A stretch of DNA of 64,000 bases from Naegleria gruberi (Eukaryota): the NCBI GenBank assembly GCA_000004985.1, contig GG738848.1. One strand, given 5' to 3'. Shown here piece after piece: positions 3,652 to 50,410 of this stretch. The position numbers and the translations under genes are program-made. Position 1 is the stretch's first letter. Each line of letters begins with the position of its first letter. Under the pieces are notes generated by a model that saw only the letters and a list, made by a program, of their open reading frames with translations, ran no database searches and had not been told where the DNA came from.

Positions 3652-6256
3652 TTATTGCAAGATGAGATGAACTGTAATTTCCTCTTGTTCTGAAGAAATA
3701 TTAAGGATTCTCATCTTTTCATTCGATTTTAATAGAGAGGCTAGAGGAGTAGTCAAGTATGATTGCTCGTTATGTTCTGAGAATATTGATGGAGCAAATA
3801 AAGAACCAGTTTCTCCCTTGGAATTTGTAATGAAAATTGTGTCCATCTCCTGATTGAGTGTTCTAGCTTCCTTCACCAATTCCTCAATGGTATCTGTAAA
3901 TTTCATATGAATTTCTTTAATATTATCAGAAATGTTCTCATAATGAATGTCTAAATCATCCAAACAGATATTATACTTGATATAGGAAAGTTTCTTTGAA
4001 TATTGATTCAACTGTTGAAGATATTGAAGTAAATGAAAACATTGAATTGATGCTGCCACGGATGTGGTAGTAATCAGAGCTGGATGAATTGCTCCAGCTA
4101 TTTTCTTTGCTTTGAAAAACTCAATTGGCTTACAAAGTTTCCTCCCAAAAAGGAAAAAGTTTTCTGCCCTAATATTGGAAGTGTCTTGAACGAACTGAAC
4201 CATCAAATCATCATCTTTTTCATATACTAAAGGTTTGAATGGTGAATTGACCTTCATATTTGAGTGAGTCATCTCTTCACTTTTTTCAGGAATAGTTATT
4301 TGGTGGTGAAACTTATTTTCATATTGTTGCAATTCTTCCCTTGTCAATGGCATGAATGGAAATTCAACACTTGATACAGATCTTGTTGATGGAATCAAAT
4401 CATTATTATCAAGATGTCTGTACAGTAAATAAATAGTAGTATTCATAAATGAGAAGTGACTCTCCTTTTCATAATTCAATTTAGCAGGACGTGGAGTAAA
4501 CTCTACCGATTCATTAAGGAAATATTGAATCTTGTTATCTTCATTCAATTCATCCAAATTGCAAAGTGTATTTTCTTGGAATGGACTGACAAATAACTGA
4601 TTAAACACCTCACGTGCAAGCACATAGAGGTGATTATTGACATTTCCAAGTTCAACCCTTTCTAATAATCTTGGGACCATTCTTGTGAAATAATCTTCGT
4701 ATTTCATTTTACTCCACATGATTAAATCTTCATGTTTTTCAGGATTGCTTTTCAGTGTGCAGGATGTTCTGATCTCTTCTCTTTCTTCCTCCTCTGTTTT
4801 TTGATTCTCATTGTGGAAGGGCTTTGTTGAGGCGTAGAGATGGAATGAATTTTGTGAGTAAAATCCTTGAGTTCCAGAGTTGATGAATGGAATTTTGTAA
4901 AGATTACACTTGTGAGAGAGGAATTGTCTTGCATGGTCATTATCTACTGCACCAAAAACAACGTCAATGGAAGACCAGAATGAATCTTGATTAAGATATG
5001 ATTCACTGTCACTGGTCAACTTTTCTTCAAACGATTCAATATTGACCTTTGAATTAAAGTAGTTGACCATCTTTTTCAATATTTGAGATTTCTTTGATCC
5101 AATATCACTTTGAGAGAAGAAAAATTGACGATTAAGATTTGTCAACTCAATACTATCCATATCTGTCACGTACATTGAACCTCTAGTAGTACATGCATTC
5201 ATGACCATCAAGTTCTTTACCAATTCACAACCTATTGCTCCAGCACCAACAATTAAAATATTCAAATCCTCAAGACCTAGCTCTTGAATTTTGAGTTGGC
5301 TTGGAGCCAAAGATAATTGATCAAAAAAGAAATAATATGGGTGCTTTTCTTTTGACAGCTCCAAAATCTGACACAGAATCTCATTTGCTGTAATTGCAGC
5401 AAAAAAACTTGTCTGTTTGTTCATGAGTAATAAAATACTTTGTAAAAGCTTACCATTGCATAATTGGAAGTTTCTCTAACTTTCTCGTGTTGAATGAATT
5501 TTTCATGATAGAAATTTAACAATTGATCTTTAACTTCATTCTCGTCATATGAGTCAATTGGATTTTCCATTTCTTCCATCTTTTCTGTAAATAAATCAAA
5601 CAAGGTGTTGACATCCATATTGTCAATAAAATTAGAAACAAGAGTTGAGAATTCTTCTAATGAAGTGTTCTCAAATATTGCATTGAGAATAGGACCATCT
5701 AAACAGCTTCTGTGAAAATGAGGAATTTGCTCCGTTTCACTTTTTGGAATAGTCAATATTCTTCCAATAAGCCCACTCACTTGAACACTAACTATTGTAT
5801 TAGAAAGATCATTAAAATTTGATTTTTCAATTCCACATTTAACAATACACTTTTAACCATTAGAGATAAAACCTAAACTTTCACTTACTGAGAACTGTTT
5901 CAAATTATTAGAAACTTCATCTGCTGAAACTTGCTTCACATTTGAGTCAGGGTTTAATCGGTGAATTTCTTCTTGGAAATTTTCTCCTTTCACATAACTC
6001 TGATCAAAATTGTAAGCTATTAGAATAGAAGAAGAATACTTACATCAAAATGGATTGTTGACAAATCTCCTTCTTCAATAGCAACAAGAGCCATGGCTTT
6101 GAATCCTAAAAGGATTAAATTTTTGGTCAACTCGACCAACATTGAACAACTTTGAGTATTCCTTTGGTTGTACTCAATCATCAAGTTACTATTATGAATT
6201 TTACTTGTAGAATCCTGCCCTAAAGCATACTCTTGCCTGTCCCATAAGTTTGACAT
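3652..6256 (-). CDS. Single-chain ubiquitin-like activating enzyme E1 (inactive N-terminal plus active C-terminal adenylation halves; catalytic Cys domain); join(6256..6044,5999..5889,5849..5454,5412..3652), about 826 aa
   Basis: Exon 1 has the E1 N-terminal motif LWDRQEYALGQ followed by a degenerate nucleotide-binding region (LVELTKNLILLGFKAMALV), i.e. an inactive adenylation-like half. The large exon has LNILIVGAGAIGCELVKNL (GxGxxG), IELTNLNRQFFF, and a catalytic-Cys block CTLKSNPEKHEDLIMWSK resembling UBA1/UBA2 PICTLKNFP / PGCTIRNTP. Three short introns (44, 39 and 41 nt) use GTAAGT/GTAAGC donors. The ORF-track start MNKQ at 5424 lies inside the last intron. Confidence 0.75.
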
Positions 6257-6272
6257 TTTTTTGATCGAATGT

Positions 6273-6280
6273 TAACGTGA
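6273..6280. promoter_or_regulatory. TAACGTGA element in the 79-bp divergent intergenic region between the E1 and UEV genes
   Basis: Seen in sequence (gttAACGTGAtttcc). It shares the AACGTGA core with the elements at 7976, 8000, 8512, 9015 and 9036. Confidence 0.4.
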
Positions 6281-6335
6281 TTTCCCAAGTCACTTCACTT
6301 TTCAAACTAAACTAATTGAAAAAAATTGTATTACA

Positions 6336-7064
6336 ATGTCTTCATCACGTTTGAGAAGGATCAAAAACGATCTTACAGAGGTACAACAAAATGCTTCTCT
6401 TCCTCCTTTATTAACATTTACACAGACTGAAAATTCTAGTATCATTCTCTTTAGTTTTAACTTGGACGAAACATCAAGTCTTTATGCAGGTGCCAATTTT
6501 CAGATTGAAGTTTCATTCCCAGAAAATTATCCCCACAAACCTCCTTCTTTCACATTCAAACACACCGTTCCATATCATTTCCTTGTTGATCAAATTAATG
6601 GAAAGGTAATTGGCCTCTCAAAACTTTCGACATGGTCAATGCTATTCACTTTACAATCAATATTTTCTGATCTCTACTCAAAATTTGTAAATGAACCAAG
6701 TCAAGAAGATGCTGAACAATGTGGTGTTAATGAGGATATGATTACAGAATATAGAAACACTCCACAAATCTACAGAGAAAAAGCAAGAAACTCTGTCAGA
6801 AAGTTGCAATTAACTGTAATTGAAAATCCTCTTGATTCAAATGAAATGAAGGATGAAGAATCTACTGAATCGAATGAAACGATTCATGAAGTAGTAGTTG
6901 ATGAAAATAACTTGCAGCCAAGTAATCCAATTTTGGAACAACCACTTGATTCAAGATTTGTTAATTCCAGTAATCACCACAAAATTGTTTCTCATGAAGA
7001 TGAATGGAATTATGAATACGGCTTGTATCATTTAAATATGAGATATGGAAATTACAATCAATAA
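6336..7064 (+). CDS. UBC-fold E2 variant (UEV-like, no catalytic Cys) with an acidic C-terminal extension
   Basis: UBC-domain blocks RLRRIKNDL...FQIEVSFPENYPHKPPSFTFKHTVPYHFLVDQINGKVIGLSKLSTWSMLFTLQSIFSDLY align with E2 FxIxFPxDYPFKPPKVxFxTxIYHPNIxxxGxICLDIL. The HPN triad is replaced by YHF and the Cys position by Gly/Ile. It is divergently transcribed from the E1 gene. Confidence 0.6.
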   Translation: MSSSRLRRIKNDLTEVQQNASLPPLLTFTQTENSSIILFSFNLDETSSLYAGANFQIEVSFPENYPHKPPSFTFKHTVPYHFLVDQINGKVIGLSKLSTWSMLFTLQSIFSDLYSKFVNEPSQEDAEQCGVNEDMITEYRNTPQIYREKARNSVRKLQLTVIENPLDSNEMKDEESTESNETIHEVVVDENNLQPSNPILEQPLDSRFVNSSNHHKIVSHEDEWNYEYGLYHLNMRYGNYNQ

Positions 7065-7114
7065 ATATTTTATTCAGAATATATTGTACATTTGTTTTTG
7101 TAACAGATTATTGC

Positions 7115-7945
7115 TTATTGAAATAACAATCTATTTTCAATTTCGTGCAAATCCTCTTTGGTTTGTGTTGGAGCTACAGGCAATGAACACTTGACATATG
7201 CACCATGAGTTGTTCCAGTTGCTTCTGTACCACTACACTTGAACGGCCATTTACCAGTATTTGTATTGTAAAGAGACAAACAAGCATGACAAAAAACAGC
7301 ATTACATCTTGGACAGTGAGTATGCTTGCACCTGTCTAACTTTCCATCAGATGATGCTTGTCTTTCACAATAATTTCCACAATTAACACATAATCTTGCC
7401 AAAGGAACAACTATTTCTTGATTGGATAGATTAATCTTGGCAGTTACAGAGGATCTAGTTGTCAAGGCAGTGATCAAGGGATCTTCATTAGAACATCCAT
7501 TTCCACAAATTCCTTCACCATTCTTCCATTGATTGCCACAAATGAAACAAAAGTCAAATTTGCAAACATCACAACTCAATCTAACATCGCTGGTGTTTCT
7601 TCTAATGAAGTGATTCTTACACTTATTACAAGTAGTTGCTCTCTTGATCTTGTAATGAATATCATTCAATGCTGAATCAAACTCTTCAATTTTATCATAA
7701 TCGATATTGGCTTGATTGACCCAATTCATTGAAATGGTTTCGCCACAATTAGTTTCATCACTTCCAGTTACATTCTTATTGGAACCATAACAAACCATTG
7801 CTGTTCCTTTCGACAAGTTTTGTAAATTTTCAACAAGACAGTCTTGACAAATATAATGTTGACATTTAAGTTTCAATAATTGTTGAGTGCCAAGACAATA
7901 GAAGCATTTAGACATTTTTTTGACTTGAGAGTTCCCAAATGTCAC
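7115..7945 (-). CDS. Cys-rich RBR-like (RING1-IBR-RING2) putative ubiquitin-family E3 ligase, 276 aa
   Basis: Three Cys/His clusters: CFYCLGTQQLLKLKCQHYICQDC (RING-like C3HC4 start); CNKCKNHFIRR...CDVCKFDFCFICGNQW (IBR-like); CVNCGNYCERQASSDGKLDRCKHTHCPRCNAVFCHAC (RING2-like). About 30 Cys in 276 aa. The assignment is by spacing pattern only. Confidence 0.5.
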   Translation of the reverse strand: MTFGNSQVKKMSKCFYCLGTQQLLKLKCQHYICQDCLVENLQNLSKGTAMVCYGSNKNVTGSDETNCGETISMNWVNQANIDYDKIEEFDSALNDIHYKIKRATTCNKCKNHFIRRNTSDVRLSCDVCKFDFCFICGNQWKNGEGICGNGCSNEDPLITALTTRSSVTAKINLSNQEIVVPLARLCVNCGNYCERQASSDGKLDRCKHTHCPRCNAVFCHACLSLYNTNTGKWPFKCSGTEATGTTHGAYVKCSLPVAPTQTKEDLHEIENRLLFQ

Positions 7946-7975
7946 TAGTCAAGCTGCACTTCAAACAGCTTTTTC

Positions 7976-8008
7976 GAAACGTGATGAAACTTATACACTC
8001 AAACGTGA
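7976..8008. promoter_or_regulatory. Two copies of the (G/C)AAACGTGA element (7976-7984 GAAACGTGA; 8000-8008 CAAACGTGA) in the divergent promoter between the RBR-like gene and the UBL gene
   Basis: Seen in sequence: ttttcGAAACGTGAtgaaacttatacactCAAACGTGAtacacc. Confidence 0.4.
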
Positions 8009-8086
8009 TACACCCCAAAACGCAACACAAGAATTCAATAAATAGATTTTAAATCACAGAATATTAATATCTCAATTCATAAAAAA

Positions 8087-8356
8087 ATGTCCACTCCATT
8101 AAACGTTTCCATTCAACAAGGTGTCCATACTAAAGTACTCTCAATCAGTCAAACTGCAACAGTGAAAGACCTTGCAACCATGTACAAATCCCAAACTGAA
8201 CTTAAAGAATTCTACTTTTTGCATAGAACCACCAGACTTGAAGAAACTACTATTGTTTCTCATATTATTAAACATCCAAACCAAAAGTTAGTAGTTGTTG
8301 GAATTGCTAAAGGTGGTTCTGAAGAAGGAAGAGCATCAATCTTGTCTCTTATTTAA
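8087..8356 (+). CDS. Small intronless ubiquitin-like (beta-grasp-like) protein of 89 aa with an internal Gly-Gly 11 residues before the C-terminus (putative UBL precursor)
   Basis: MSTPLNVSIQQGVHTKVLSISQTATVKDLATMYKSQTELKEFYFLHRTTRLEETTIVSHIIKHPNQKLVVVGIAKGG|SEEGRASILSLI. Alternating hydrophobic beta-strand patterns and a central helix fit a ubiquitin-like beta-grasp. The GG is followed by a short tail, as in precursor UBLs. It sits between the E3-like and E2-like genes. Confidence 0.45.
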   Translation: MSTPLNVSIQQGVHTKVLSISQTATVKDLATMYKSQTELKEFYFLHRTTRLEETTIVSHIIKHPNQKLVVVGIAKGGSEEGRASILSLI

Positions 8357-8511
8357 ACCTAGTTGAGTTTCGTCAAGATATTGAAATAAACTCTCTTTTT
8401 TCAATTAAATCGAAATATTAATCATTTCTGCTGCTTATGAAATCAAGCCGTGTGATCAAACGAGAATCTAATTTTGGTGCCACTGGTGCAAATGATTAAG
8501 TTAGGAAGTCT

Positions 8512-8520
8512 GAAACGTGA
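8512..8520. promoter_or_regulatory. GAAACGTGA element 17 nt upstream of the E2-like gene ATG
   Basis: Seen in sequence: gtctGAAACGTGAaaaaaacaattaaaaaATG. Confidence 0.4.
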
Positions 8521-8536
8521 AAAAAACAATTAAAAA

Positions 8537-9016
8537 ATGTCAAAACAAAGAAGAATTCTGAATGAAGTTGCTGAAGCCAACAAGAACAATCATCCAAAGA
8601 TCAAATTTGAAATTTCCCAAGAGAATTTACATGGTTGGAATTGTTCATTTAAAGGTCCAGATAACACTCCCTATCAAGATTTGCAATTTGAAGGAACTCT
8701 CTGTCTTCCGTAAGTTTAGTTTGGATTAGTTTTGCTAATATTTTGCTTGGTTAGAAATGATTTTCCTTCATCAAGACCAACCTTTGTATTCTCTTCCAAA
8801 ACAATTCCATACCACATCAATGTAGACGATAGTGGTGTAGCTTCTGTCTCTTTGCAATGGACTCCCACACTCACAGGAATAGTTTTTGTCGAAAGTGTAA
8901 TTAACATGTTAGAAACTCCACAACCAACTTGTTCTGTTAGTGATGAAAGATTCAAATTATATCAAAGTAACAAAGATCAATATCAAAAACAAGCCAGCAA
9001 ATTCCTCCAAGAATAA
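8537..9016 (+). CDS. UBC-fold E2-like protein, about 151 aa, with Ser at the catalytic-Cys position and HIN instead of HPN; join(8537..8709,8755..9016)
   Basis: Exon 1 MSKQRRILNEVAEANKNNHPKIKFEIS...GWNCSFKGPDNTPYQDLQFEGTLCL (UBC N-terminal helix and the GPxxTPYEGG block). A 45-nt intron (GTAAGT...TTAG) in phase 2 joins it to PNDFPSSRPTFVFSSKTIPYHINVDDSGVASVSLQWTPTLTGIVFVESVINMLETPQP. This aligns to IYHPNINSNGSICLDIL...WSPALTISKVLLSI with C replaced by S. Confidence 0.6.
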
Positions 9017-9044
9017 ACGTGATCATTGTAAACTTGAAACGTGA
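9015..9044. promoter_or_regulatory. Two copies of the AAACGTGA element (9015-9022 and 9036-9044) immediately upstream of the USP gene ATG (9062); the first overlaps the stop codon of the upstream E2-like gene
   Basis: Seen in sequence: gaaTAAACGTGAtcattgtaaacttGAAACGTGAgacgaatcttaaaaaaaATG. Confidence 0.4.
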
Positions 9045-9061
9045 GACGAATCTTAAAAAAA

Positions 9062-24541: not shown

Positions 24542-24745
24542 TCAAAATTTTCGAAATTGATGAGATTTAGGAAATTTTCGTTGCAAAATTTGAAACTTTT
24601 AACTCAAATCAATTTGATACGAAAATGGTCAACCTCATTCATTCTACTACAACAATGAATAAATATTTAAACTCAAGTTCACATGAGAACTTTGGACCAT
24701 CACAATCTTTGTAAACAAACATTTTCACTTAAACCCTGGAAAAAA

Positions 24746-27090
24746 ATGCCTCCAAAGACCTCCTCAAAAACAACCTCTTCTGATGATGTTGATGAAAGCA
24801 GTGATGTAACCACAAAAAAGACGGTAACAAAATCGACCACCACCAAAACAACAAGTACTTTTGTTAATAAGCCTTTCAAGGTACCTCTAAAATCACCACC
24901 AAAGACTGCAACTTCATCTTCAGCAACAACAATATCTGCTGCTTCATCTTCTTCATCTTCTACAAAGAGTGCTGCTAAAAGTAGTGTTACTGCAAAGGCT
25001 AAACCACTCTTTGAACAGTCCCAAATTTTAGCTCCGAGCGATCCATCTTTGGATGATTCTTTTACTTTTGATTCTCCATTGAAAAACAAGAAGAAGAATG
25101 TGGAAAAGGAAGATGATGAGGATAGTGATAATGATGTAAATGAAAAAAAGAGAAAATTGGAAAGCATTTCAAAAGCAAAGAAGGAAAGTGAAAAAGTAAA
25201 ACCCACTAAAAAATTGAAAGAATCATTGAGTACAGTTTCCGATGAAAAGAAACCCTTCTCTCACAAGGAAATTAAACCAAAATCATCAAACAAGACTTTT
25301 ATTATTGGTGTAAGTGGTGGAGACTTTGCTCAAAAATCAGAAGTTGTGAATATCATTGAAAAGGTAGGTTTGAGAATATATAACTCGTATAACGATCCTT
25401 TTCCTTCATTGAATTAGTTATCAAAAAATACAGAATACGAATATGTGGAAATTGGTAGTTCAAACTTTGAAAGTTATACTCATCTGGTTTGTCTTGATCC
25501 TAACCCAAAGAAAACCATCAAGTTAATTTATTCTATTGCTTTGAATGTTCCAATAATCAAATCATCTTGGTTATATGAGAGTGAAAAATGTAATTATTTT
25601 GTAAAGGAAAGTGATTTTTATTTCGCTCAATATATCAGATCAAGAAGTGAGGGAATTTTGAAAGGAAAAAGATGTTATATTTTAAGAGGAGAAGTGACAT
25701 TTCCATCACCAGAAATATGTGAAAGATTTATTGAACTAAGTGGAGGAGCTTGTGTGGAAGATATTACTCGAGCAAATATTATACTTTCAACAACAGGAGC
25801 AAAAGATTTTGATAATATCATTCCAAGACACACTTCCAGTATGCCCCTATTCCCAGTGGTAACTGTTCGTTGGTTAGTTGACTGTGTTGATAAACAACAA
25901 TATCAAGATCCAAATGAGTATAAGGTATGTGTTTTTAATAATATTTACATTGTGGATTTACAATTCGAAAGGATGATTACTTTTACAGTGAAGCTTGTGT
26001 TTTGAAAGAAAGAGTGCTTGCTGAAAAATCAGCTCGAAAGCATATTGGATGTTTGAGATTATTGACTGATATTACTTGTTCAGCTAATATTATCCCATTA
26101 TATGCAGACAAAAAAAGTATTGTACTGGGAAGAGCAGCTACAGATGTGGATTTCACTGTAGATACTGAAAACTCAAAGAAGAATCCTGTTATTTCTAGAA
26201 TGCACGCTAAAATTGTACAGTTCCAGCAAGAAAGTAACAGCCAAAGTAAGGAAACCATACTCAAGTGGAAGCTCATTGATTCTTCCTCGAATGGTACCTT
26301 TGTAAATAATGTTAAGGTTAAGGAAGCCGTTTTAGCTAATGGAGATATTATTTGTTTCGGTCATTCCAAGGCCTCAGTTAAAGTAGGAGAACAAATTCCA
26401 TTCGCAAATACCAAATGTAAATATGTGTTTGAGACTGAGGATATTGTTTCAAATGAAGAAGCCGAGAAGGAAAAGGAGAGATTAAGAAAAGAGAATGAAC
26501 TAATGAGATTGGAAATTAATGGTCTAAGAGATTACAAACAAAAATCAAGTATGGTAAACCATCAAAAAGAGAAGGAAATTATACGTCTGCAAGAATTACT
26601 TTCCAAAAATCAGAGAAAAGAAATTGTCGAATTTCCACTCTGTCACAAGCTTTATGTATTGGATACAAACGTTCTCGTTGAAAATATTTCAATCCTTGAG
26701 AATCTGTTAAAATCAGCCAATATTACATGCCTTATCCCATATACAGTTATGGTTGAGTTGGATAAATTAAAGACGAGAACAGGTTCAGTTGCCATTAAGG
26801 CAAGAGAAGCAACCAGATTCTTGGAGGAATGTTTCGAAAACAAGACTTATCCAAATTTGATGGGTCAACTTCCAAACCAACAACTGAAAGGTATTGAAGA
26901 TGGAGGTGTTTTTGTTTCATCTGCTGATGATAACATTATCAATTGTTGCCTCTATTTCAAAGATCACGTACTCAAACGAAAGGAAAAGAATCATGAATTA
27001 ATTCTTTTAACATTTGATAAGAATATGAGAGTTAAAGCAGGTCTCTTAAAGATTGTTTCTCCTTCAATTCTTCCATTCAACAATAATTGA
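24746..27090 (+). CDS. Tandem BRCT + FHA + coiled-coil + SMG6/Swt1-type PIN nuclease domain protein, about 747 aa; join(24746..25363,25418..25924,25972..27090)
   Basis: A K/S/T-rich N-terminus. BRCT 1: KTFIIGVSGGDF...YTHLVCLDPNPKKTIKLIYSIALNVPIIKSSWLYESEKC. BRCT 2: KGKRCYILRGEVTF...RANIILSTT...PVVTVRWLVDCV. FHA: IVLGRAATDVDFTVD...VISRMHAKIVQF...WKLIDSSSNGTFVNN. Coiled coil EKEKERLRKENELMRLEINGLR. PIN: LYVLDTNVLVEN...YTVMVELDKLK...DDNIINCCLYF...LLTFDKNMRVKA, matching SMG6 PIN VPDTN / ELDGL / DDLILSCCLHY / LLTDDRNLRVKA. The track ORFs 24683, 25445 and 26002 are joined by 54-nt and 47-nt introns in phase. Confidence 0.6.
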
Positions 27091-29027: not shown

Positions 29028-29909
29028 ATGGGTATTGTTGGATCAAGGTGCGGAAAGCATTACAAGATTCAGGCGAAAATATCGAGTGAAGTTGTGGAGA
29101 ATGGTCAAACGGTTCTATTCAATGTTTGCAATCGCACTGAACAACAACAACAAGAGGAAACACCAAATGGTGATGATCAATCTGTTACTCGCCATGCCAG
29201 CTCACAAGAATTTTCAGCAAATAGTAACAGCCAAAAACAACTGCTAAGAGGTTCATCATCAAGTTTATCATCAACCTCATCATCAGAATTATTAACATCG
29301 AACGGAACTGCAGAGAGCAGTGGAAATTTAAAATCAATTCTAGGTTCTAATAAGAGCTCACCCACTGCAAGACCATTACGTTCAGTTACCTTAATATTAG
29401 ATACAAAGGAAAAGGAAGAAATATTTGCATCATCAACAATAAGCAAACGTAAAAAAGGAAGAAGAAAAACTGATAAAGACAATGATCCAATAGAGGAAGA
29501 CTGCATAGATATTAGGGTTCTCTCAAGAAGAGCTTCTCTGCCCTCAATGGTGAGTTTTGAAGGTTCTCTCTCCACCACACCAGATAGAAAAGTAACAGGA
29601 AACTTCTTCTACAGTGTATTGGAGGCACCTTACTCACCAGCAGATAGTACCAAAACAGCTCCAACCCTATCAACTGTTTGTTTAGAATCTCCATCTATTA
29701 GAATCATTCCTCCATATGAAGATTTATTGGAATGTGATGTTTACCCATTGCCAAAGAAACATGCACTCAAAGATGAAAAAGCTAGAAAGTTGCAAGAAAA
29801 GAGATTAAATCCAGTCAAAACTTGGTCAAAGGATGAATTGAGAAAGTTAGCAAAGAAGACAAAGCGTGCTACTAATCCAATTGCAGAAGATTTAATGATT
29901 TACAAGTAG
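29028..29909 (+). CDS. Ser-rich hypothetical protein with an N-terminal MGxxxS myristoylation-type motif
   Basis: MGIVGSRCGK start, long Ser/Thr-rich low-complexity middle, KKGRRK basic patch. No recognisable catalytic domain. Confidence 0.4.
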   Translation: MGIVGSRCGKHYKIQAKISSEVVENGQTVLFNVCNRTEQQQQEETPNGDDQSVTRHASSQEFSANSNSQKQLLRGSSSSLSSTSSSELLTSNGTAESSGNLKSILGSNKSSPTARPLRSVTLILDTKEKEEIFASSTISKRKKGRRKTDKDNDPIEEDCIDIRVLSRRASLPSMVSFEGSLSTTPDRKVTGNFFYSVLEAPYSPADSTKTAPTLSTVCLESPSIRIIPPYEDLLECDVYPLPKKHALKDEKARKLQEKRLNPVKTWSKDELRKLAKKTKRATNPIAEDLMIYK

Positions 29910-45170: not shown

Positions 45171-46082
45171 ATGTCTTTTTGCTACCTTGATGTGTTACCT
45201 CCAGAAATCATTACACTAATTCTCCAGCACTTGTCCTTCTCGGAATTGGCTGCACTTTTGAAACGTGAACCGCAATTTTACCAATTAATTTCTGCTAGTG
45301 ATTTGATGTATGCATTTACATGTACATTCACTCATATTTATTCGAATCAAAAAGAAATGGAAAATGCGCCAAGTTGGATTGCATCAAGAGTGTGGAAAAA
45401 AAGAATACCCCTACCAAAAGAACATATTCACCAATTGACCAAATTTCAAAAATTATTAGCAACAACTAGAAATGATTCCTCCAAATACGAAAAGCATTTG
45501 AAACAATTTCACTATCATCGAATTAAATTATTAATGAGTGCTTGGAAGTACAATCTGAAAACAGATATCAGGTTTTTTAGGCAGAGTGGAATTGAAAATT
45601 ATTTACAATATTTTGAAAATCATCTCACTTGGTTTATGGATTACGATATTCAAGCAAATACACGAGAGCTGAGTTATCTGTTGGTTGAATTACCGATTGA
45701 GCTTTGTGGGTCGATTTTTTGGACATTGAAACATCCTAATTATTATACTATTTTGGAACCTTCAAATTTGGAAAGATTTTGTAAAGTATTGCCCAAGTAT
45801 TTTTACATATTACTCAAATTGGGTCATCCAAGATTTTGTCATAGATTTCCCTCATGGAAACATTCATCACGGCTATCCATATTGATCGAACAAAATTCTG
45901 ATGTGATAGTGAGAGTTCCAAATGGAGTTTGTTTACTTTACTTTATTTCCATGTTTGAGAGAGTTAACCCAAGACAAATTCTATCAAAATTGAGTAGTTC
46001 ACCATCGGTTATTAAGAACGGTGCTCTTTTACAGGAAATGTTGGAAGAATTTGAATTTCCCCTCAAGTACTGGTGGGATTAG
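45171..46082 (+). CDS. F-box-like domain protein (paralog of 47156..48049)
   Basis: N-terminal LDVLPPEIITLILQHLSFSELAALLKREPQFYQLI fits an F-box (LPxEIxxxIxxxL). Confidence 0.45.
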   Translation: MSFCYLDVLPPEIITLILQHLSFSELAALLKREPQFYQLISASDLMYAFTCTFTHIYSNQKEMENAPSWIASRVWKKRIPLPKEHIHQLTKFQKLLATTRNDSSKYEKHLKQFHYHRIKLLMSAWKYNLKTDIRFFRQSGIENYLQYFENHLTWFMDYDIQANTRELSYLLVELPIELCGSIFWTLKHPNYYTILEPSNLERFCKVLPKYFYILLKLGHPRFCHRFPSWKHSSRLSILIEQNSDVIVRVPNGVCLLYFISMFERVNPRQILSKLSSSPSVIKNGALLQEMLEEFEFPLKYWWD

Positions 46083-48207: not shown

Positions 48208-48736
48208 ACTGTTTTATAACAGACAACCGTTTCAATTTCTTTTTGTTTTCAAAGATAAGGTGATTTGGAGCGAAAGAAATATTGGATTTGAAAGTTGGGA
48301 CTCTTTTCTAATAAACCTTTCATCTTTCAACTCGAATGATCTTGGTACAAATATCAAACACCCCATATTGAACTAAGTTCAAAAAGAGCTCTATTCCTTG
48401 AATATTGTTTCAACTCATACACCATCAACAAATCTCTTCATTTTCATCTCTGGTATCTTTCCAAGTCAGGTGTCAAATTACTAATAATTGAAATCAATCA
48501 GCTTCACAACTTTTCAAACTTGTTAATTGTCTTTTTTCAGGTTTTTTAAAAACCAAATAGAGACGTTGAACAGTTTTATTGGTGGTGAAAAGTTGATGAA
48601 TCACAACACAAATGTCTTGTTTTTAATATTTTCCTTTTTTGTAACTGACACATTTTGAGAAGGAGTCTTGATGGCTAACCAATCGTTTCGTTGATGTTGT
48701 GGTTAATTGAACAAGATAAACAACATAAAAAAAAGG

Positions 48737-50410
48737 ATGAACCATCCTGACAGCTGTCAAAAGTTCTCGTTTGAGTGGGTAATGGAAAATAATGAATGTT
48801 TGCAAGTGTTTTTGCAATATTTACAAGCCCATCAAAATGCTGAACAATTAGAATGTTTAATCGAAATGAAAGAACTTAAACAGGATATGGATTTGATATT
48901 AAATAGTGTTTCGAATAACAATTCGGAAGAGTTGTGTGTTTCGAATAGTAATACAGTAAGACAAGAATTGCAACGAATGTTGGGCGACTTTCCCTTGACT
49001 GATAAGAAAAAGAAGAGAAGAAGTTTATTCTCTGACTCATCGTCGAATATCAACACAACAGAAAACAGTGTGAAAACAATTTTTAGAAAATTGCTGGAAT
49101 TTTCCACAAGTTTCTTACATGTAAATTCGAAACGAGAACTAAACTTGCCACAAACCTTGAGAAACAAACTGTCGTTACAAATCCAAACTTTTTGGAACCT
49201 ATATTCTAAAAAGTTTGGATTTGATGAACATTTACCTTGTGTAAACAATAATTCGAATAGAAATTCAAGTAATAGTTTCCAACCACCTGTTTCTGCTACT
49301 TCTAATCCTCCTTCTAACTCTTCTAATACCATCTCTAGCCCATCCAATAACAACAATAGACGTTCTGTCAATAGCAATACATTCAATGCTTCAAATGTCA
49401 TTGATATTGAAGTGACAGATTTTTATGATTTCATTACAGACAAGTCACTTTTAAATTCACCAAAACAATTTACTGAACCCCCAGGTGGTTTATCTCCTGT
49501 TAGTTCTCTTTCTGATACTTCATTTTCATTTGATGGAAACTCAATACTCGAAGATTTTCTCATGTGCATTTCAAGAGTTGAAGAAGTTTTGAAGGAATTG
49601 GACACTTTCATTCGATTACAAGTTAAAACAGAGAGTTTTAGAGATTTCTGTAAATCTGAGCAGTTATATACATTCATTCAAAAGTTGAATCCTTCGACAG
49701 AGTTTATGAGAGAATTGAAAAGAAATTACAGACAATCGATGAGGGTTAGGTCAATTGCTAATCTGAAAGATATTGGAGATTCGAATGAGCAAAATTTGTC
49801 AATCATGTTGCTGAATGATAAGCTTCTCAAATGGAGTATGAATGATGTGTTAAATTGGATAGGAGAACATGGATTGGAGGAAATGGAATATTTCATTACA
49901 CAGAACAAAATTGATGGTTCAAAACTTTCACATCTGGAACAATATATCAATGATAGCGTGTATCCCTCTTTTGAAGTTAGGAAAAAATTCGAATATGAAG
50001 TTGATGAGCTGTTGACCTCGTTTGGATTTGAACCTCTTCCAAATACTGATTTTCCAGATATTAATTCAAGAAAGGGTAAATCACCACCAATCTCTAAGAA
50101 TGTAGTTGATATTTCTAATGAGACATTTGTTTTAAATTGTCAAATTTCTCAATCGAGTGAAATCAAAAAGATTAAACTGAAATCCAAACAGCTAGTCAAT
50201 TACTATTCACTTAAGAAAATACTCAAAGATACATTTGGAATTACCAGTGATTTGGAAATTGTACTAGTCAACCAATCCAAAACTTGTCCAATTTCTCCAT
50301 CCAATATTCTAACATCATTCAAGAAAGATATCATGAATCAAATCAAACATCCAAATCATAATTCACACATTACTGAAATTTTCGAAAAAAAGCTGATAAT
50401 AAACATTTAA
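48737..50410 (+). CDS. RGS-like + SAM domain signalling protein
   Basis: N-terminal FSFEWVMENNECLQVFLQYLQAHQNAEQLECLIEMKELK (RGS-like). SAM-like WSMNDVLNWIGEHGLEEMEYFITQNKIDGSKLSHLEQYI. C-terminal ubiquitin-like/PB1-like KIKLKSKQLVNYYSLKKILKDTFGITSDLEIVLV. Confidence 0.5.
   Translation: MNHPDSCQKFSFEWVMENNECLQVFLQYLQAHQNAEQLECLIEMKELKQDMDLILNSVSNNNSEELCVSNSNTVRQELQRMLGDFPLTDKKKKRRSLFSDSSSNINTTENSVKTIFRKLLEFSTSFLHVNSKRELNLPQTLRNKLSLQIQTFWNLYSKKFGFDEHLPCVNNNSNRNSSNSFQPPVSATSNPPSNSSNTISSPSNNNNRRSVNSNTFNASNVIDIEVTDFYDFITDKSLLNSPKQFTEPPGGLSPVSSLSDTSFSFDGNSILEDFLMCISRVEEVLKELDTFIRLQVKTESFRDFCKSEQLYTFIQKLNPSTEFMRELKRNYRQSMRVRSIANLKDIGDSNEQNLSIMLLNDKLLKWSMNDVLNWIGEHGLEEMEYFITQNKIDGSKLSHLEQYINDSVYPSFEVRKKFEYEVDELLTSFGFEPLPNTDFPDINSRKGKSPPISKNVVDISNETFVLNCQISQSSEIKKIKLKSKQLVNYYSLKKILKDTFGITSDLEIVLVNQSKTCPISPSNILTSFKKDIMNQIKHPNHNSHITEIFEKKLIINI

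Follow-up and report, generated by a model that had tools for sequence, protein, structure and literature searches.

Does the short open reading frame (ORF) at positions 8087-8356 of a Naegleria gruberi contig encode a protein modifier that is attached to its targets in the way of ubiquitin? The frame belongs to a stretch of 64,000 nucleotides of contig GG738848.1 (assembly GCA_000004985.1), hereafter called the window, and was put forward as a candidate ubiquitin-like modifier (Ubl) in an original prediction made from the DNA letters. It lies in the middle of a cluster of six genes (3652-10414) which encode, in order, a Uba1-type activating enzyme (E1), a protein with the fold of conjugating enzymes (E2a), an RBR-like ligase (E3), the Ubl, a second E2-fold protein (E2b) and a USP-type protease. 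Mainly in view of this genomic context, we consider it fairly probable that the frame codes for the precursor form of a lineage-specific ubiquitin-like modifier, which would act in a six-gene, apparently co-regulated conjugation cassette. No earlier description of the cluster or of the protein was found in literature on the locus tags, on Naegleria Ubl systems or on the 8-mer motif discussed below.

The six-gene cluster

The strongest evidence that points to a Ubl conjugation cassette is the company that the small gene keeps. The cluster is bordered by an unrelated cathepsin-like gene and a hexosaminidase gene, its surroundings consist of ordinary housekeeping genes, and all six of its reading frames are intact. 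The USP gene, which had been placed about 700 bp downstream of the Ubl, starts at 9062, i.e. 706 bp past the Ubl stop codon. The flanking E3-like and E2-like genes of the original prediction are also present, with an RBR-like gene upstream in divergent orientation and an E2-like gene downstream, but the latter lacks the canonical catalytic Cys. Not mentioned in that prediction were the Uba1-type E1 gene located 2 kb upstream of the Ubl and a promoter motif common to the cluster. An origin of the cluster from a giant virus or a prokaryote was considered and rejected, as there are no related viral loci, introns are present and the flanks are housekeeping genes. Pseudogenisation was rejected as well, since the frames are preserved.

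The ORF at 3652-5424 on the minus strand is identical (100%) to a protein annotated in N. gruberi as 'ubiquitin activating enzyme E1' (P0002). An E1 was expected to show the patterns GxGxxGCE, DxDxIExSNLNRQF and DN..AR and to have its catalytic Cys within the SCCH domain. In the alignment with yeast Uba1 the adenylation motifs appear as GAGAIGCE, DMDSIELTNLNRQF and DNDHAR, and Cys443 (in TSCTLKS) pairs with Cys600 of the yeast enzyme. The closest relatives are ubiquitin E1s, yet the identity to any Uba1, Uba6 or Uba7 is only about 28%, and the enzyme is therefore not the housekeeping E1. Its length of about 811 aa is some 200 residues short of the usual 1,020 or so. A reduced inactive adenylation domain can be recognized by eye, whereas the FCCH, 4HB and UFD modules were not detected by Pfam, unlike in all other top homologues. 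Orthologues of the E1 or of the Ubl beyond the N. gruberi lineage were not found.

Two further observations concern the E1 gene. The annotated protein (773 aa) begins with MLVELT, but the exon continues 38 codons further upstream (6044-6256, minus strand) to MSNLWDRQEYALGQ, a sequence that resembles the conserved start of E1 inactive adenylation domains and that is preceded by the aaaaaaATG context of the cluster. The annotated model is thus probably truncated at the N-terminus by 38 residues. The crossover-loop region in front of the catalytic Cys is unusually acidic (NENQKTEEEEREEIRTSC).

The USP protein scores 56.5 bits against the Pfam UCH family (cut-off 23.9) and possesses the three motifs expected of these proteases: the Cys box GNTCYLNS, QNDSSEF (pattern QxDxxEF) and the His box GHY...ND. 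A phmmer comparison of the whole protein with the PDB gave no match, and it must therefore be a very divergent USP. Its C-terminal extension of about 170 residues, which includes a Lys-rich stretch, has no Pfam match. The RBR-like protein remains just under the Pfam gathering cut-offs, both for IBR_1 (25.6 bits against 27) and for IBR (21.7 against 24.3). It contains three fingers, RING1-like at about 4-42, IBR-like at about 92-133 and RING2-like at about 176-215, and a weak match to ARIH2 (E = 0.02) covers them in the order RING1, IBR, RING2. The candidate catalytic residue is Cys196 in the third finger (RCKHTHC, with the finger assigned by eye), and the middle finger has an Asp at the catalytic column.

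The two E2-fold proteins are less regular. E2a has neither an HPN motif nor a Cys at the canonical catalytic position, and its sole cysteine, Cys129, is located in the loop after helix 2. In E2b the motif reads HIN, so that H-x-N is kept. The column of the canonical Cys is occupied by Val or Ser in E2b and by Ile or Gly in E2a, and E2b has no Cys at all between residues 57 and 116. Cys117 of E2b aligns with Ser120 of UBE2A, the 'gateway' residue beside the active site. Since Cys129 and Cys117 are opposite each other in a BLASTP alignment of the two proteins (24% identity), E2a and E2b have in common a cysteine in the loop next to the normal active site. They may carry a relocated nucleophile at this position or be pseudo-enzymes resembling ubiquitin E2 variants (UEVs). 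To our knowledge, an E2 that uses a relocated loop cysteine would be unprecedented. E2b is absent from protein databases, and a search with it returned no candidates.

A link between the six genes is also suggested by their upstream regions. The octamer AAACGTGA occurs seven times in the 64 kb where 1.6 copies would be expected, a count that was not reached in any of 100 shuffles, although this enrichment is optimistic as the octamer was defined after being noticed in the spacers. Six of the seven copies are found between 6345 and 9044. With the relaxed pattern [AT]AACGTGA there are eight copies in the window, seven of them within the cluster, and none of the six genes is without a copy 24-110 bp upstream of its ATG. 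A metagenome contig from a sister strain (L001, see below) covers four octamer sites, of which three are conserved; in the divergent promoter between the RBR and Ubl genes the site at 7977-7984 is conserved and that at 8001-8008 differs by one base. The octamer is probably a shared cis-regulatory element, which would make the cluster apparently co-regulated. The lone copy of AAACGTGA outside the cluster, at 45261, is located inside an ORF (45171-46082) without a Pfam family.

Table 1. Genes, protein regions and upstream motifs of the cluster (positions in the window)
Feature	Position	Strand	Evidence or remark
Uba1-type E1, multi-exon, about 811 aa, starts MSNLWDRQ	3652-6256	-	Pfam ThiF 2e-42, SCCH 2e-8; PDB Uba1 alignment; exon mapping
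TAACGTGA motif, 56 bp upstream of E2a ATG	6273-6280	+	conserved in L001
E2a, 242 aa, UBC/UEV-like fold, single exon	6336-7064	+	Pfam UQ_con 4e-17, RWD 2e-5; PDB alignments; annotated XP_002681982
AAACGTGA motif on E1 strand, about 90 bp upstream of E1 ATG	6345-6352	-	conserved in L001
RBR-like E3, 266 aa, single exon	7115-7915	-	Pfam IBR_1 1e-5, IBR 2e-4; annotated XP_002682134
Two AAACGTGA motifs, divergent RBR/Ubl promoter	7977-7984, 8001-8008	+	110 and 86 bp upstream of Ubl ATG
Candidate Ubl precursor gene, 89 aa, single exon	8087-8356	+	ORF translation; coding score; sister-strain homologue P0001 and synteny
Predicted mature modifier, residues 1-77, ending KLVVVGIAKGG	8087-8317	+	read from sequence; GG kept in P0001
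Ubl C-terminal tail SEEGRASILSLI, 12 residues, presumed propeptide	8318-8353	+	in-frame 9-bp indel right after GG
AAACGTGA motif, 24 bp upstream of E2b ATG	8513-8520	+	
E2b, 144 aa, UBC fold, exons 8537-8709 and 8755-9016	8537-9016	+	Pfam UQ_con 1.4e-22; UBE2A HMMER alignment
Two AAACGTGA motifs, 47 and 25 bp upstream of USP ATG	9015-9022, 9037-9044	+	
USP protease, 421-aa model, exons 9062-9274, 9316-9348 and 9395-10414	9062-10414	+	splice enumeration; Pfam UCH 4e-15

The reading frame and its sister-strain copy

The frame at 8087-8356 is intact and translates to the sequence quoted in the original prediction, MSTPLNVSIQQGVHTKVLSISQTATVKDLATMYKSQTELKEFYFLHRTTRLEETTIVSHIIKHPNQKLVVVGIAKGG-SEEGRASILSLI. 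Codon usage was expressed as a log-odds score trained on the window's long ORFs other than those of the cluster. In its own frame the Ubl scores +0.342 bits per codon, similar to E2a (+0.335), RBR (+0.317), E1 (+0.304) and USP (+0.241), while the other five frames are negative (-0.15 to -0.84) and the flanking spacers are negative too (-0.82 and -0.63). The window is nuclear DNA of N. gruberi, with a GC content of 30-37% over its whole length. The start codon is embedded in the A-rich context aaaaaaATG, the same as in the other five genes of the cluster. The absence of introns, which had been called unusual for this region, is not so, as E2a and RBR in the same cluster also consist of a single exon.

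A second source of evidence is the metagenome contig L001. This contig of 2,710 bp is syntenic with the 5' end of the E1, E2a, RBR and Ubl genes, and since it is 95.5% identical to positions 5709-8357 of the window it must come from a sister strain. The coding sequence of the Ubl is 94.6% identical between the strains and its upstream spacer 85.7%; past the stop codon the alignment collapses. The spacers and an intron, about 400 bp together, differ by 7-8 indels, against one in about 2.2 kb of coding DNA, which makes indels in coding DNA roughly 40 times less frequent than those in non-coding DNA. The only coding indel is an in-frame event of 9 bp in the Ubl, immediately after the Gly-Gly. The sister-strain protein (P0001) consequently has 86 aa; it is about 90% identical, keeps the GG and has a tail of only nine residues, LRASILSLI, where L replaces the SEEG of the window.

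A spurious open frame in intergenic DNA, with no gene behind it, would be consistent with the absence of the protein from the reference proteome annotation, and with a homologue that is known only from a strain 95% identical at the DNA level. The exact protein was not found in a collection of 15 billion sequences and is contained in no database protein, from which it follows that the Ubl is unannotated in the N. gruberi reference genome. This missing annotation is uninformative, because the clear UBC-fold gene E2b is unannotated too. The coding score equal to that of bona fide neighbours, with five negative alternative frames, the higher identity of the coding sequence compared to the upstream spacer and the poorly aligning downstream spacer, the in-frame indel and the start context common to the cluster all argue against a spurious frame, which we regard as very improbable. 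Judged by coding statistics and strain comparison, the ORF is a real gene, beyond a chance open frame. A related possibility, that it is an exon of a larger gene, had been named as a result that would speak against a modifier. It was rejected because the ORF has its own A-rich start and because the less conserved spacer upstream is the divergent RBR promoter, and also because the sister-strain gene call has identical boundaries. Both Ubl and E2b are missing from protein databases, so that about 1 kb of the N. gruberi reference appears to be incompletely annotated.

Fold, C-terminus and proposed mode of action

The features of the Ubl protein that recall ubiquitin are found at its C-terminus and, more faintly, in its N-terminal half. 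The C-terminus has a hydrophobic strand followed by IAKGG at residues 73-77, with the two glycines encoded by GGT GGT at 8312-8317; the GG of ubiquitin is at residues 75-76. The original prediction was right about a Gly-Gly at a ubiquitin-like position with a short tail behind it, but the tail counts 12 residues where 11 had been given. With five Gly in 89 residues, a GG would be expected by chance at one given position in about 0.3% of cases and within a 10-residue window in about 3%.

For both Ubl homologues the best Pfam family is the OTU1 UBX-like domain, a beta-grasp domain, with E = 0.0023 and 0.0007; the match on residues 15-42 is sub-threshold (18.9 bits against a cut-off of 22.7 bits). 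A ubiquitin-family alignment was constructed from 13 Ubl sequences (Ub, NEDD8, Rub1, Fubi, both ISG15 domains, FAT10-C, Hub1, SUMO1, SUMO2, Smt3, Urm1 and UFM1). Comparison by hhalign gave an in-register local match of Ubl residues 18-55 to residues 15-54 of Ub (p = 0.028). The corresponding hidden Markov model (HMM) scored the two homologues at 7.6 and 9.3 bits, with empirical p-values of 0.0023 and 0.0007 from 3,000 composition-preserving shuffles, and its signal falls on the beta1-beta2-alpha1 region. The ubiquitin-family and UBX-like profile signals, both weak, fall on residues 7-42. In the register anchored at the GG, the hydrophobic pattern agrees with that of ubiquitin at p = 0.05. Two AlphaFold models, from the single sequence and from a two-sequence alignment, had low confidence (pLDDT 46-47). 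Their secondary-structure order was beta-beta-alpha-beta-beta-beta. The structure prediction and fold comparison recommended in the original prediction thus returned an order of elements that fits, but at a confidence at which fold searches with the models were uninformative. The ungapped register implied by the ubiquitin-like periodicity noted there by eye is not significant (p = 0.2, see below). A beta-grasp fold is weakly suggested by the profile signals.

Several results weigh against a conjugated modifier. Neither a word-indexed search of 5.8 billion proteins nor an exhaustive HMMER search across 1.8 billion representatives brought up a homologue of the Ubl other than the sister-strain copy, and no further relatives emerged when metagenome and viral contigs were scanned with the Ubl, E1 and RBR; for that reason no diverse alignment could be obtained. 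The Ubl has no match to the Pfam ubiquitin family (PF00240) at E up to 10, and phmmer against the PDB produced just noise (FGF1 and ribosomal protein L6). The ungapped GG-anchored BLOSUM62 comparison with ubiquitin, with 11 of 76 positions identical, is not significant. The last eight residues of the tail, RASILSLI, are the same in both strains, a conservation that a discarded propeptide would not need, but the strains are only about 5% diverged. The ratios of non-synonymous to synonymous substitution (dN/dS) between the strains are not low, with 0.51 for the Ubl (nine non-synonymous and 4-5 synonymous differences, hence of low power), 0.32 for RBR and about 1.4 for E2a; counts are small, and constraint may be relaxed. 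The E2a value, from ten nucleotide differences between 6336-7064 and positions 634-1362 of L001 of which eight change an amino acid, hints at positive or relaxed selection, with the reservation that the differences are few. Finally, both E2-fold proteins have the UBC fold and lack the canonical Cys that a catalytic E2 should possess, and the dedicated E2 step is therefore missing or unorthodox.

These results could be understood in a different way if the cluster had arisen by duplication of ubiquitin-system genes and were now decaying or neofunctionalising, with the small ORF as a young orphan of unrelated or no function that happens to be located there. The elevated protein divergence of E2a and Ubl, the twofold loss of the E2 catalytic Cys and the lack of orthologues of E1 and Ubl outside the N. 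gruberi lineage would agree with this. Decay is difficult to reconcile with six intact frames and with coding indels that are so much rarer than non-coding ones, the single one being in frame. The retention of catalytic residues in E1, USP and the RBR RING2, the gene-like codon usage and the conservation of the upstream motif in the sister strain point in the same direction, and we find such a duplicate distinctly unlikely.

An alternative of a different kind accepts the Ubl as a real protein of the cluster that is not conjugated, but is a non-covalent partner of E1, RBR or USP, such as a Ubl-domain protein or another small adaptor or regulator. The E1 would then activate ubiquitin or another Ubl, the GG would be incidental and the tail would be retained. 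The conserved distal tail is consistent with this, as are the unproven Ubl fold and ubiquitin homology. Moreover, both E2-fold proteins have the appearance of non-catalytic UEVs, whose binding of ubiquitin is typically non-covalent, and the nearest relatives of the E1 are ubiquitin E1s. On the other hand, a GG at 76-77 after a hydrophobic strand, as in ubiquitin, has the low chance expectation given above. A divergent E1 with a private USP and RBR is hard to explain if the substrate is the invariant ubiquitin. The window also contains no other Ubl candidate, as tblastn revealed neither a paralogue nor a ubiquitin gene elsewhere in it. An adaptor of this kind appears improbable to us, though it deserves more weight than a decaying duplicate.

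If the Ubl is indeed conjugated, as we favour, a sequence of reactions can be proposed. The USP would remove the 12-residue tail and expose Gly77. The Uba1-type E1 would adenylate Gly77 and carry the modifier as a thioester on Cys443, provided that it is specific for the Ubl. The modifier would pass to the RBR-like E3, with Cys196 as the candidate acceptor, and from there to lysines of substrate proteins, and the USP could also reverse the modification. For the step between E1 and E3 two options can be considered. The E2-fold proteins could be UEV-like cofactors that assist a housekeeping E2, or that accompany a direct transfer from E1 to RBR. Alternatively, the E2 step could use the relocated cysteine in the loop near the active site, i.e. 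Cys117 in E2b and Cys129 in E2a. We infer all of these transfer steps, as well as the pairing of the Ubl with the E1; directly visible in the sequence are the intact catalytic motifs of E1 and USP, a candidate Cys in the RBR, the GG, and the cluster with its octamer.

Relation to known systems

Among known pathways the ISG15 system of vertebrates provides the closest parallel. It comprises ISG15, UBA7, UBE2L6, HERC5 with RBR partners, and USP18; ISG15 is a fast-evolving Ubl made as a precursor with an extension after the GG, it has a private E1 of the Uba1 family and a private USP, and the set is co-induced. The Naegleria cluster would share the fast-evolving Ubl with a post-GG extension, the private Uba1-family E1 and USP and the joint induction, and its E1 and E2a have UBA7 and UBE2L6 among their better database matches. 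The differences are considerable. The vertebrate modifier is a tandem di-Ubl whose homology to ubiquitin is clear, the genes of the system are dispersed and a canonical Cys is present in UBE2L6, whereas the Naegleria Ubl has a single domain without significant homology to ubiquitin, the six genes are adjacent and the E2-fold proteins lack that Cys. In view of the fast protein divergence, the restriction to one lineage and the shared promoter element, an inducible ISG15-like role in stress or defence may be speculated upon.

A more far-reaching proposal would be that a self-contained, co-regulated cassette has evolved or been acquired, with an orphan modifier that has no detectable relationship to ubiquitin. 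In this proposal the nucleophilic Cys of both E2-fold proteins has moved to the gateway loop, which creates a new E2 geometry, and the cassette serves as an inducible tagging system in stress or anti-viral responses, a counterpart of ISG15 that arose independently. We consider this full combination unlikely.

With ubiquitin, NEDD8 and FAT10 the predicted modifier has in common a mature length of about 76-77 residues and a terminal Gly-Gly preceded by a basic residue. It differs from them in the missing PF00240 match and in the low ungapped identity to ubiquitin. The cluster E1 resembles Uba1, Uba6 and NAE in its adenylation domain, SCCH domain and catalytic Cys, and the protease is of the familiar USP type; the shorter length of the E1 and the modules that Pfam does not detect set it apart. 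The E2-fold proteins are comparable to UEVs (Mms2/Uev1a, Tsg101) and RWD domains, as they combine the UBC fold with the absence of an active-site Cys, and E2a scores on RWD. They are unlike UEVs in that E2b keeps HIN and that both have a loop Cys at or beside the gateway residue. A cysteine in the gateway loop is not a known feature of classical UEVs.

Clusters in which such functions are encoded side by side exist in prokaryotes. Defence operons with E1, E2, JAB and Ubl genes occur in bacteria. An operon of Caldiarchaeum encodes Ub, E1, E2, RING and Rpn11 proteins (PMC5654768). The Naegleria cluster is similar to these operons in bringing together a modifier, an E1, a conjugating-type protein, a ligase and a protease. 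Its parts are those of crown eukaryotes, with a Uba1-like E1 that includes SCCH, an RBR, and a USP instead of JAB or Rpn11. In further contrast to the operons, it has spliceosomal introns, separate promoters on both strands and a nuclear housekeeping neighbourhood. Prokaryotic or viral relatives of the cluster were not found in the scans of metagenome and viral contigs.

The cluster would work like a ubiquitin-type conjugation system, which is of a known kind, and the claim that its modifier is a conjugated beta-grasp protein draws on context. New would be an orphan modifier outside the named Ubl families, an operon-like and co-regulated layout in a eukaryote, and E2-fold proteins without the canonical Cys. 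About a dozen Ubl conjugation pathways are known in eukaryotes, nearly all ancient and widespread. If the proposed reading is correct, a young pathway restricted to one lineage, and equipped with an E1, E3 and protease of its own, would indicate that whole Ubl cascades can still arise anew or be rebuilt. Ubiquitin genes of eukaryotes are rarely arranged in such an apparently co-regulated cluster, and a compact six-gene system would lend itself to reconstitution in vitro. The E2-fold proteins raise the question whether E2 chemistry can use a relocated cysteine or whether charging of an RBR is possible in the absence of a canonical E2. In addition, the locus exposes Ubl and E2b as short orphan genes absent from the reference annotation of N. 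gruberi. Elsewhere in the window there are four long ORFs (244-567 aa) without a Pfam family at E up to 1e-5, at 24683-25417, 29028-29909, 45171-46082 and 48707-50410.

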